Shown piece after piece: positions 19,808 through 24,062 of a stretch of DNA of 34,183 nucleotides (within the stretch, counting starts at the first letter, position 1; each line of letters opens with the position of its first letter). Both the position numbers and the translations under genes were made by a program. A model generated the notes under the pieces. It did no database searches and had not been told where the DNA came from. It saw only the letters and a list, made by a program, of their open reading frames with translations. The stretch covers positions 1 through 34,183 of the forward strand of contig DATEJD010000458.1 of NCBI GenBank assembly GCA_035278325.1, read 5' to 3'. This stretch comes from Gemmatimonadales bacterium (GTDB lineage Bacteria > Gemmatimonadota > Gemmatimonadetes > Gemmatimonadales > GWC2-71-9).

Positions 19808-20251
19808 TTACTCCTTGATAAAGGCAGCTACGGCGGGATCCCGACGGAGCGCCGCCAGCGCCGAGGCATCCGGTCGCTCGGGCACGTCCCGATCGCAATC
19901 CACCATGCAGAGGAAGCCGAGCGGCTCGTCGCCCCACGTCTGGAACTGGTGCCAAGTGAGCGGCGGGACCCGCACGAGATCGTGGGTGCGCGCCTCGACG
20001 ATGTGGTCGCCGACGAACACGCGCGCGGCCCCTCGGATGACCATGACCGCATGCGCGTGATGATGCCGCTCGAGCGATGACCAGCCACCCGGCGCGACCT
20101 CGAAGTAGCGCAGCTCGCAGCCGAGCCCGTCCCCTCCCTGAAACAGCACCTGGCGGGTGATGCCCGAGAAATGGGTCCCCTCGCCCTTGTAGGGCTTGAC
20201 CTCGATGCCGTGCCAGCGGAACGGCTGCGTCTGGCGAACGTGCTCGCTCAT
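19808..20251 (-). CDS. Cupin-domain protein (147 aa), translationally coupled to the RuBisCO-like protein
   Basis: MSEHVRQTQPFRWHGIEVKPY...FEVAPGGWSSLERHHHAHAVMVIRGAARV...THDLVRVPPLTWHQF (cupin motifs 1 and 2). ATG 20251 overlaps the RLP stop as ATGA. The track ORF 19808..20917 is an out-of-context extension. Confidence 0.8.
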   Translation of the reverse strand: MSEHVRQTQPFRWHGIEVKPYKGEGTHFSGITRQVLFQGGDGLGCELRYFEVAPGGWSSLERHHHAHAVMVIRGAARVFVGDHIVEARTHDLVRVPPLTWHQFQTWGDEPLGFLCMVDCDRDVPERPDASALAALRRDPAVAAFIKE

Positions 20252-21372
20252 CGGACGGCCTCCGCGGCGGCCCGCGCGACTCGATTCACCAGAATGCGGG
20301 TGCGCTCGAAGAGGTCCTGGTCGCCCTCGTAGAGACTCCCGCCGATCAGCAGGATGGCCTCGGTACCGTAGAACTCGAGCAGCTCGGGCACGCGCTCCAC
20401 CTTGATGCCGCCGGCGGGCACCGGAAACGCCGAGCGGACACAGGGATGCTCGGCCCGGAGCTGGGCGGCTATCGCGCGGCAGGTCTCGGGACTGTATGCG
20501 AACCGCCCGCCGGCATGGGGATAGATCACCGCGTCGGCGCCGAACCAGCGGAACAGCTTGCCGACGAGCGTCGGCTCCTCCGCGCGGAGCACGCCCCCGA
20601 ACGATGGATGCGCGAGCAGCGGCAGTCCCTCCGGGAGCGCCGCGAGCTGCGCCAGCAGGGGCAGCCCCAGCACCATGGGCGAGACGAGCGCGAGCTTGAC
20701 GCCGGTGTCCCGGGCGAACTCCAGCTGGCGCGCGATGCGGTCGGGCGTGCCGATCAGGTTGGGGACGTACACCGAGGTTCGACCAGTCTCGCGCGCGGCG
20801 TCTTCCACCGCCCGGAGGCAGGCCTCTACCCGAGCCTCGAAGGGACAGAACGGGTGGTCGGCCAGGCCGTGGTCGTCCTTGATCAGGTCCATGCCGGCAC
20901 GCGCGAACAGGCCGCACAGGGCCGCGAGACGGTCAGGGCGAAGTCCCATGGGCTTGAGCGCGGTCGCGAGCAAGGGCCGGCCGGTCGCGCCGGCAAGCTC
21001 GCGGATGCCGGCGATGCCCGCCCGAGGCCCTGGCAGCCAGGCGAAAGCCGACTCGGGCAGCTCGATATCGCCCAGGACCACGTCCGGCTGGAGCGAGCAG
21101 TTGCCGAACGCCACGTTGAGCAGCTGCGCGGGGTCGCCCACGGTCGCAAGCGGCTGCGCGATGGTCACGCGATAGAGCTCGTCGCTCACGGGCTCGATCC
21201 CCTCGACGCTGCCGAGGATGTGGCCGGCCACCCACGCGTCGCGTGCCGCGGTGGAGCGGGGAAGCTCGACGGTCTGCTCCAGCATCAGGGCCTCGGCGCG
21301 GGCCGCGATCTGGCGCGCCGGGGCACGGACGAGGTACGTGACCCGCAGCGCCTCCTCGCTCCTCAAGGGCAC
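20248..21372 (-). CDS. Form IV RuBisCO large-subunit-like protein (RLP)
   Basis: 374 aa. ATALKPMGL (K175 equivalent kept, K177 position is M). DLIKDDHGL (K201 and D203 kept, E204 position is H). LLAHPSFGG, IYPHAGGRF, PVPAGGIK, LLIGGSLY match the RuBisCO large-subunit barrel. GTG start. Confidence 0.85.
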   Translation of the reverse strand: MPLRSEEALRVTYLVRAPARQIAARAEALMLEQTVELPRSTAARDAWVAGHILGSVEGIEPVSDELYRVTIAQPLATVGDPAQLLNVAFGNCSLQPDVVLGDIELPESAFAWLPGPRAGIAGIRELAGATGRPLLATALKPMGLRPDRLAALCGLFARAGMDLIKDDHGLADHPFCPFEARVEACLRAVEDAARETGRTSVYVPNLIGTPDRIARQLEFARDTGVKLALVSPMVLGLPLLAQLAALPEGLPLLAHPSFGGVLRAEEPTLVGKLFRWFGADAVIYPHAGGRFAYSPETCRAIAAQLRAEHPCVRSAFPVPAGGIKVERVPELLEFYGTEAILLIGGSLYEGDQDLFERTRILVNRVARAAAEAVR

Positions 21373-21406: not shown

Positions 21407-21419
21407 GGGTATTATACCC
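21407..21419 (-). promoter_or_regulatory. 13-bp palindrome GGGTATtATACCC containing a perfect TATAAT on the minus strand, about 35 nt upstream of the RLP start
   Basis: Read directly. The minus strand reads GGGTATAATACCC. No good -35 element at 17-18 nt, so the promoter assignment is tentative; it could equally be an operator. Confidence 0.3.
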
Positions 21420-21481
21420 GCGCACCGACCGATGACGACGGGTGCTTGCCAATCCTCTCGTGAGCCGACACGTTGCCTGCC

Positions 21482-23117: not shown

Positions 23118-24062
23118 GTGCAGCACCCGATTCGCCACCTGCATCACGTCACCGCCACCGTGGCCGAGGCCCGCCCCGATCTGGCCTTCTGTCGCGGACT
23201 GCTGGGACTTCGTCTGGTCAAGCGCACCGTCAACTTCGACAATCACAACGTCTACCATTTCTACTACGGCACCGAGCAGGGCGCGCCGGGCACGATCTGG
23301 ACCACCTTCCCGTACGCGGGCTGGCAGGTGCCGCCGGGGACGCAGGGCGCGGGGCAGATCGTCGCGACCGCCTTCTCGGTGCCAGCCGGCAGCCTGGAGC
23401 TGTGGCGAGCCCGGGTGACCGCCGCCGGCCTCCCGGCCAACGAGGGTCACGATCCATTCGGAGCTCCGCAGCTGGCGATTCGCGATCCGTCCGGCCTGGT
23501 GCTCGAGCTGGTCGCCGACGAGCGCGATCGCCGCGCGCCGTGGCCCGGCGGTGGCGTCGACCGCGCGGCGGCGATCCGGGGCCTTCACGGCGTGACCCTC
23601 CTCCTCCGCGAGCGTGCACCGACCATATCCCTGATGACCGGCCTGCTCGGCTTCGCGGTGGTCGATGAAGGCCCCAACCGCACCCGGCTGGCCGTCGGCG
23701 GGAACGCGCCGGGACACCTGGTCGACCTCGTCGTCTCCGCGGATGCGCCACCGGCCCGGAACGGCCTCGGGACCGTACATCACGTGGCGTTCGCGATCGC
23801 CAGCGCGGAGGAACAGCTTCGGCTGCGCGCCGAGCTGGTGCGGCTGGGCCATGAGGTGACCCCGGTCCGCGACCGCACCTACTTCCAGTCGATCTACTTC
23901 CGCGAGCCCGGCGGGGTGTTGTTCGAGGTGGCCACGATGTCACCGGGCTTCACCTTCGACGAGCCGCTGGATCGACTGGGCAGCGGCCTCAAGCTGCCGC
24001 CGTGGGAGGAGCCGCACCGCGCCGCGATCGAGGCCGCGCTCCCGCCGCTCGGCCCAGAATGA
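23118..24062 (+). CDS. VOC-superfamily ring-cleaving dioxygenase / glyoxalase-family protein (two-module)
   Basis: IRHLHHVTATVAEARPDLAFCRGLLGLRLVKRTVNFDNHNVYHFYYG, a second module with VHHVAFAI, and YFQSIYFREPGGVLFEVAT. GTG start with GAGGAG 7 nt upstream. Confidence 0.75.
   Translation: MQHPIRHLHHVTATVAEARPDLAFCRGLLGLRLVKRTVNFDNHNVYHFYYGTEQGAPGTIWTTFPYAGWQVPPGTQGAGQIVATAFSVPAGSLELWRARVTAAGLPANEGHDPFGAPQLAIRDPSGLVLELVADERDRRAPWPGGGVDRAAAIRGLHGVTLLLRERAPTISLMTGLLGFAVVDEGPNRTRLAVGGNAPGHLVDLVVSADAPPARNGLGTVHHVAFAIASAEEQLRLRAELVRLGHEVTPVRDRTYFQSIYFREPGGVLFEVATMSPGFTFDEPLDRLGSGLKLPPWEEPHRAAIEAALPPLGPE

Follow-up and report, generated by a model that had tools for sequence, protein, structure and literature searches.

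The closest described relatives of the genes reported here are two pairs in which a RuBisCO-like protein (RLP) works together with a cupin. In Rhodospirillum rubrum, Rru_A1998, an RLP of the DeepYkr type, is the 5-methylthioribulose-1-phosphate (MTRu-1-P) isomerase and the cupin Rru_A2000 is the 1-methylthioxylulose-5-phosphate (MTXu-5-P) sulfurylase (PMC4958253), this pair being credited to Erb et al. 2012 and Warlick et al. 2012 where they are cited in PMC4958253 and PMC5893883. The same roles were shown in vivo and in vitro for RPA2169 (RLP1) and RPA2170 (cupin), adjacent genes of Rhodopseudomonas palustris (Miller et al. 2018, PMC5893883), and R. rubrum-type pairs in Meiothermus and others were already listed by North et al. 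2016 (PMC4958253). We describe such an RLP-cupin pair in a stretch of 34,183 nucleotides (the window, i.e., positions 1 to 34,183 of contig DATEJD010000458.1, assembly GCA_035278325.1) from a Gemmatimonadales bacterium, whose metagenome-assembled genome (MAG) comprises 3.7 Mb in 519 contigs and is 92% complete. Based on homology, clade placement, conserved residues, gene order and gene fusions, and on mtnA, metY and dxs being encoded in the genome, the pair is very probably a new member of the known methylthioadenosine (MTA)-isoprenoid shunt. The original prediction of a module of this type is thus supported by the clade of the RLP, by Rru_A2000 as the best match of the cupin and by mtnA in the genome.

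Identity of the RuBisCO-like protein

Many long open reading frames (ORFs) in this high-GC window are spurious; however, given their Pfam domains (RuBisCO_large, PF00016, 82 bits in the RLP; Cupin_2, 44 bits in the cupin) and their full-length matches to solved structures, we regard the two ORFs as real genes and not as chance frames. Residue correspondences were taken from an alignment of the window RLP with two form I RuBisCOs from related genomes. The form I motif KPKLGL aligns with KP-MGL in a loop one residue shorter, such that K175 is kept as K140, K177 is lost and M142 stands in its place, while form I KDDE aligns with KDDH, i.e., K201 and D203 correspond to K165 and D167 and E204 is replaced by H168; R295 becomes P256. 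The alignment bears out the substitutions proposed for K177 and E204, and with all three residues replaced and a TIGR03326 score of 104 against a cut-off of 497, we rejected a bona fide RuBisCO of forms I-III, in agreement with the earlier view that the protein should not carboxylate.

The best solved match is 3QFW (E 3.5e-87, 296 bits, residues 7-367 against 6-366), which we take to be RLP1 of R. palustris, and its motifs LKPQGL and IKDDHGLAD stand where the window RLP has LKPMGL and IKDDHGL. YkrW-type enolases (4NAS, 2OEK, 2ZVI) reach 109-135 bits, far below 3QFW, Photo-type RLPs (1YKW, 2QYG) 79-84 bits, and true RuBisCOs score lower still. The RLPs of Rhodoblastus and of a Bradyrhizobium MAG score 318 bits against 3QFW, no better than the window RLP, and do not corroborate the origin of this structure. 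Against the NCBIfam equivalogs for MtnW, form III RuBisCO and OiaX, the window RLP remains far below all cut-offs. It is the sole RuBisCO-family gene in the genome and has the short chain (ca. 370 aa), free of the form I C-terminal extension, that is part of the signature of DeepYkr proteins. RLPs of this class convert MTRu-1-P to MTXu-5-P and 1-methylthioribulose-5-phosphate (MTRu-5-P) at a ratio of ca. 3:1. We assign the window RLP to the DeepYkr clade as a predicted 5-methylthioribulose-1-phosphate 1,3-isomerase.

In a set of RLP homologues (n = 271) collected by searching clusters at 90% and 50% identity, 247 sequences carry KDDH and 15 KDDQ. In place of K177, M is the most frequent residue (148 sequences), followed by V, L, Q or I. 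Seven positions, K140, K165, D166, D167, H168, H255 and P256, reach 90% conservation or more in a 39-sequence alignment (31-70% identity), and all seven residues are present in the window RLP. KDDH is thus the signature of the whole clade, the solved 3QFW included, and gives no hint of new chemistry.

In a quick IQ-TREE tree of RLPs (95 rows, 374 columns), a 92-row KDDH group that includes the window RLP and Meiothermus stands apart from form I RuBisCO and a second Rhodoblastus RLP (SH-aLRT 97). The window RLP falls in a 17-row Gemmatimonadales clade (SH-aLRT 95) whose sister is a Rhizobiales trio (SH-aLRT 91), its nearest relatives outside Gemmatimonadota being Rhodoblastus and Bradyrhizobium. 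The phylogeny thereby places it with the KDDH, cupin-linked clade and not with one of other established function. RLPs from further genera of the Gemmatimonadales (L022-L027; BLAST identity 39-45%) branch off in a basal clade of their own, and the gene is patchy, present in 19 of 151 Gemmatimonadales genomes and in five of ten other genomes of the genus; this basal second clade and the patchy occurrence fit a lateral acquisition. Two bins titled ‘MAG: Klebsiella pneumoniae’ (L056, L072) also carry the pair. In the tree L072 is sister to a pair made up of L056 and L058, an uncultured proteobacterium, and the species name given to the two bins seems questionable.

The cupin and its conserved residues

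The best solved match of the cupin is 3JZV, titled ‘uncharacterized protein Rru_A2000’ (E 1.4e-42, 148 bits, 136 of 147 residues alignable), so the comparison with the R. rubrum methylsulfurylase comes out in favor of the relationship suggested earlier. 3IBM and 3KGZ score about as high as 3JZV, while the next, unrelated cupin obtains only 28 bits. Nineteen positions are invariant in 73 RLP-linked cupins and all 19 are found in the window cupin, among them E61, H63, H65, H67 and H101 of the metal site and C115, with the same residues aligned in Rru_A2000. The conserved cysteine is reportedly catalytic. We predict that the window cupin is a metal-dependent methylsulfurylase of the Rru_A2000 family.

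Linkage and fusion of the two genes

A pattern scan covering one genome per prokaryote species recovered at least 594 genomes with this type of RLP. Linkage was assessed in the best 80 loci, which include neither R. rubrum nor R. palustris and come from Gemmatimonadales, Rhizobiales (Rhodoblastus acidophilus, Bradyrhizobium), Verrucomicrobiota, Caldilineae, Myxococcota, Rhodothermales, Betaproteobacteria (Thauera, Azoarcus, Aromatoleum, Burkholderiaceae), Eremiobacterota/Vulcanimicrobiota, Acidobacteriota, Actinomycetota and Meiothermus. Of these 80 named genomes, 62 have the cupin immediately after the RLP on the same strand, three more loci being cut by a contig end, and the same order is seen in 10 of the 12 loci of the window's own order (the window's own counted). 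Moreover, eight of ten long homologues tested (P0142, P0158, P0160, P0166, P0167, P0178, P0156 and P0203; 36-49% identity) are single chains with both a RuBisCO_large and a Cupin_2 domain (six of 530-552 aa, one of 611 aa and one of 785 aa). We regard these fusions as independent evidence that both activities belong together.

Other arrangements were seen as well. The homologue P0165 is instead fused at its N-terminus to an inositol-monophosphatase-family domain. About 14 of the 80 KDDH-type RLP genes (L047, L048, L050, L051, L052, L057, L062, L071, L073, L077, L080, L084, L101, L107), mostly from Verrucomicrobia, Eremiobacterota/Vulcanimicrobiota and Rhodothermaceae, lack an Rru_A2000-type cupin within a downstream flank of up to 4 kb (shorter in L050, L051 and L101), and likewise none follows the RLPs of L024 and L025, which belong to the basal Gemmatimonadales lineage. 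The partner or the role of these cupin-less RLPs may differ.

The rest of the pathway in the genome and the order

As originally noted, there is neither mtnP nor mtnA in the window, and the genome's matches lie on other contigs. A search of the whole genome recovered mtnA (TIGR00512, 355.7 bits, cut-off 279; split between contigs C2 and C123, the latter holding the tail, and followed by glpK), so MTRu-1-P can be made from 5-methylthioribose-1-phosphate (MTR-1-P). The other two genes of that search, canonical mtnP and mtnK, were not found, and of classical methionine salvage no mtnB was over cut-off. An O-acetylhomoserine sulfhydrylase (metY; TIGR01326, 600.7 bits, cut-off 495) and two dxs genes over cut-off are present. 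The methylerythritol phosphate (MEP) pathway was judged from dxs only, and given two copies of this gene, the shunt would supplement Dxs and not replace it.

With no canonical MtnP, MtnN or MtnK found, the step from MTA to MTR-1-P has no assigned enzyme. The genome contains two trimeric purine-nucleoside-phosphorylase (PNP) paralogues that are 45% identical, PNP-A (C355:7958-8698) and PNP-B (C72:8704-9594). Across 151 Gemmatimonadales genomes (two of them, G077 and G090, unpublished, with no conclusion depending on these two), mtnA occurs in 120 and canonical MtnP in only four, each time beside mtnA, whereas at least two PNP-like genes are present in 112 of 120 mtnA-positive versus 7 of 31 mtnA-negative genomes (a hand tally, uncorrected for relatedness). 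PNP-B is near-universal (140/151), therefore it is PNP-A that tracks mtnA, and we consider the latter a candidate MTA or methylthioinosine phosphorylase and thus the entry enzyme of the shunt. More broadly, it is conceivable, if rather unlikely, that Gemmatimonadales feed MtnA, and here also the RLP-cupin shunt, through PNP-A as an unrecognised phosphorylase of this kind in place of canonical MtnP, MtnN or MtnK, and that the same entry enzymes also pass 5'-deoxyadenosine, from which the RLP would make 1-deoxyxylulose-5-phosphate (DXP) directly via 5-deoxyribulose-1-phosphate.

An MTA phosphorylase fused to or clustered with mtnA was looked for and dismissed, as the long frames around mtnA and PNP-B hold no extra Pfam domain and represent high-GC read-through. 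In the relative G139, mtnA is flanked by gyrB and a recF-like (SMC_N/AAA) ORF on one side and by glpK on the other. A relative with one PNP-like gene (G117:C1:527927-528866) has mtnA as two adjacent pieces below cut-off (232 and 139 bits), which may reflect a gene in decay. The genome also encodes a protein of the class II aldolase/adducin family (G000:C134:5331-5861, minus strand; L007:1402-2031) that is below every NCBIfam cut-off, its best scores being 128 bits for 3-oxo-tetronate-4-phosphate decarboxylase, 113 for fuculose-phosphate aldolase and 86 for MtnB. This protein could act as an MTRu-1-P aldolase of Ald2 type in the dihydroxyacetone phosphate (DHAP) shunt, i.e., a second fate for the product of MtnA.

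Proposed route and alternatives

We propose that MTA released by polyamine synthesis and other S-adenosylmethionine (SAM) reactions would be converted to MTR-1-P, with PNP-A as the candidate enzyme, and then to MTRu-1-P by MtnA. The RLP, which keeps the carbamylatable lysine and the metal-site aspartate and is devoid of K177, E204 and R295, would isomerise MTRu-1-P by a 1,3-proton transfer to MTXu-5-P, along with some MTRu-5-P. The cupin, equipped with His/Glu metal ligands and the invariant cysteine, would in turn use a thiol to remove the methylthio group of MTXu-5-P, yielding DXP for the MEP pathway and methanethiol (or its equivalent), which the O-acetylhomoserine sulfhydrylase MetY could return to methionine. 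In this scheme we infer which thiol is used, which enzyme forms MTR-1-P and what each protein catalyzes, and the chemistry is carried over by analogy from what was found in R. rubrum and R. palustris to proteins that are ca. 50% identical.

Several observations weigh against assigning the pair to the MTA-isoprenoid shunt. At ca. 50% identity to proteins of the characterised clade, the substrate specificity is not guaranteed, and the tree was built without the sequences of Rru_A1998 and RPA2169, for which Meiothermus and Rhizobiales served as proxies. Canonical MtnP was not found in the 92%-complete MAG (TIGR01694, cut-off 275, gave no more than 79 bits), and neither were MtnN and MtnK (no TIGR01767 or TIGR01704 matches). 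The presence of mtnA is itself weak support, as mtnA is so much more common in the order than the RLP (120 versus 19 of 151 genomes) and serves another route in most relatives. The gap upstream of MtnA is also what lends some credit to the idea that the same enzymes and the same chemistry, be it of the pair or only of the RLP, act on another substrate, e.g., 5-deoxyribulose-1-phosphate, derived from the radical-SAM by-product 5'-deoxyadenosine and converted directly to DXP by 1,3-isomerisation, or some other 5-substituted pentulose phosphate. MtnP/MtnA-type enzymes of the DHAP shunt are described as accepting both MTA and 5'-deoxyadenosine (PMC10986504 and PMC12632272), and the RLP genes with no cupin within 4 kb (ca. 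14 of 80) are what a cupin-independent role would predict. However, a deoxy substrate would not need a cupin, while in the window the cupin is translationally coupled to the RLP and retains the invariant cysteine and metal site of the methylsulfurylase; besides, we found no published report of such an RLP activity, and the proposal, a purely chemical inference, is in our view improbable.

Two further possibilities concern the RLP itself. The replacement of E204 and K177, together with the functional diversity of RLP clades (e.g., the RLP decarboxylase modeled in NCBIfam as OiaX), could be taken as a mark of new chemistry unrelated to methylthio-sugar isomerisation, as the original prediction had offered for KDDH. 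This pointer loses its force once KDDH is seen to be the norm of the clade, shared by the large majority of homologues (247/271) and by 3QFW, and tied to Rru_A2000-type cupins by gene order and fusion; the OiaX model itself gives 79 bits against a cut-off of 700, and we hold a new chemistry to be highly improbable. Equally, the best NCBIfam match by E-value is the mtnW model PRK09549 (1.1e-49), as would suit a YkrW/MtnW 2,3-diketo-5-methylthiopentyl-1-phosphate (DK-MTP-1-P) enolase of classical methionine salvage. The scores, however, fall well short of the cut-offs (PRK09549, 169 bits against 409; TIGR03332, 124.5 against 513.6), solved YkrW enzymes obtain less than half the score of 3QFW, and in the genome there is no mtnB over cut-off (one class II aldolase, 65-86 bits) and no mtnK was found, all of which makes the enolase extremely improbable. 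Membership in the MTA-isoprenoid shunt is, in our opinion, by far the best account of the pair.

Gene structure and neighborhood

The original gene coordinates, the 147-aa cupin, the 374-aa RLP and their ATGA overlap were confirmed in the sequence (Table 1). The TGA stop of the RLP (20250-20248) overlaps the ATG of the cupin (20251-20249) on the minus strand. Read from GTG 21372 the RLP has 374 aa, and from TTG 21366 it has 372 aa; the latter is the likelier start, because GGAGG lies 5 nt upstream of it and the database gene call (P0003) is also of 372 aa.

Table 1 Features of the RLP-cupin locus in the window
Feature	Position	Strand	Basis
RLP (RuBisCO-like protein), predicted 5-methylthioribulose-1-phosphate 1,3-isomerase, DeepYkr/KDDH clade	20248..21372	-	Pfam, PDB matches, motifs, tree
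Cupin, 147 aa, predicted methylsulfurylase	19808..20251	-	Pfam, PDB match, invariant residues
ATGA stop/start overlap of RLP and cupin (translational coupling)	20248..20251	-	read directly from sequence
Promoter-like site TCGTCA, 16 nt, TATAAT	21411..21438	-	10/12 matches; -10 recurs in relatives

The promoter-like site lies ca. 35 nt upstream of the RLP start, and 0.0 such sites were expected from shuffled sequences. Its -10-like TATAAT, 16 nt downstream of the -35-like TCGTCA, lies inside a palindrome, GGGTATAATACCC (window 21407-21419, minus strand). TATAAT or TATACT recurs at a similar position upstream of the RLP in relatives L028, L029, L030 and L018, L028 retaining the palindrome core GGTATAATACC and the three others TATACT at the same place. 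Judging from these motifs, the site presumably acts as a promoter and the palindrome may be an operator overlapping it. A search of the window for a terminator-like site downstream of the cupin found none.

A divergent serine hydrolase gene upstream accompanies the pair in the four closest relatives. No other window neighbor travels with it, and we therefore take the unit to consist of two genes; a downstream cupredoxin-like gene and an extracytoplasmic function (ECF) sigma factor were considered as operon members and rejected, as they accompany the pair in no relative. A gene of the glyoxalase/vicinal oxygen chelate (VOC) family directly follows the cupin in several close relatives (L029:3486-3773, L032:3907-4839 and L021:1405-2250, the last also seen as L037). 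The encoded proteins are 34-38% identical to a VOC protein of the window located beyond the divergent serine hydrolase (23118-24062, plus strand), and the gene next to the cupin may be an accessory to the pair.

Significance

This soil lineage of Gemmatimonadales can probably recycle the sulfur of MTA by chemistry that is independent of oxygen, releasing methanethiol and topping up DXP. Beyond a correct annotation this has little significance, given that the literature already covers the pathway, the two enzyme families and how they are linked, and that the pair is widespread in public genomes. Nor does its presence in a non-phototroph extend the range of the pathway, as had been suggested, since Meiothermus and others were already listed (PMC4958253), the RLP type occurs in at least 594 species genomes and JGI already lists some close homologues as S-methyl-5-thioribulose 1-phosphate isomerase. 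KOfam models for both enzymes are likewise in use in surveys (PMC10663253).

Comparison with known systems

With YkrW (MtnW) of Bacillus and Geobacillus the window RLP shares the RuBisCO-like fold and the link to methionine salvage, and this is its nearest named NCBIfam model. In contrast, YkrW has no cupin partner and catalyzes another reaction (DK-MTP-1-P enolase), and the window RLP is far below the equivalog cut-offs and has K177 and E204 replaced. In the R. rubrum system the same two protein families are involved, the window cupin has the His/Glu metal ligands and the cysteine of GFLCMV in common with Rru_A2000, and the window RLP is short (ca. 370 aa) and of KDDH type, in a genome that has mtnA, an O-acetylhomoserine sulfhydrylase and the entry enzyme of the MEP pathway. 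It differs in that the window genes overlap (ATGA), whereas the locus tags A1998 and A2000 imply that the R. rubrum genes are not immediate neighbors, and in that R. rubrum has MtnP (Rru_A0361), while no canonical MtnP was found in the Gemmatimonadales MAG. Besides MtnP, R. palustris has a DHAP shunt based on Ald2, a second RLP of the Photo type and true RuBisCOs, unlike the window genome with its one RuBisCO-family gene. Like the window genes, RPA2169/RPA2170 are an adjacent DeepYkr RLP-cupin pair, and the nearest outside relatives of the window RLP are Rhizobiales.

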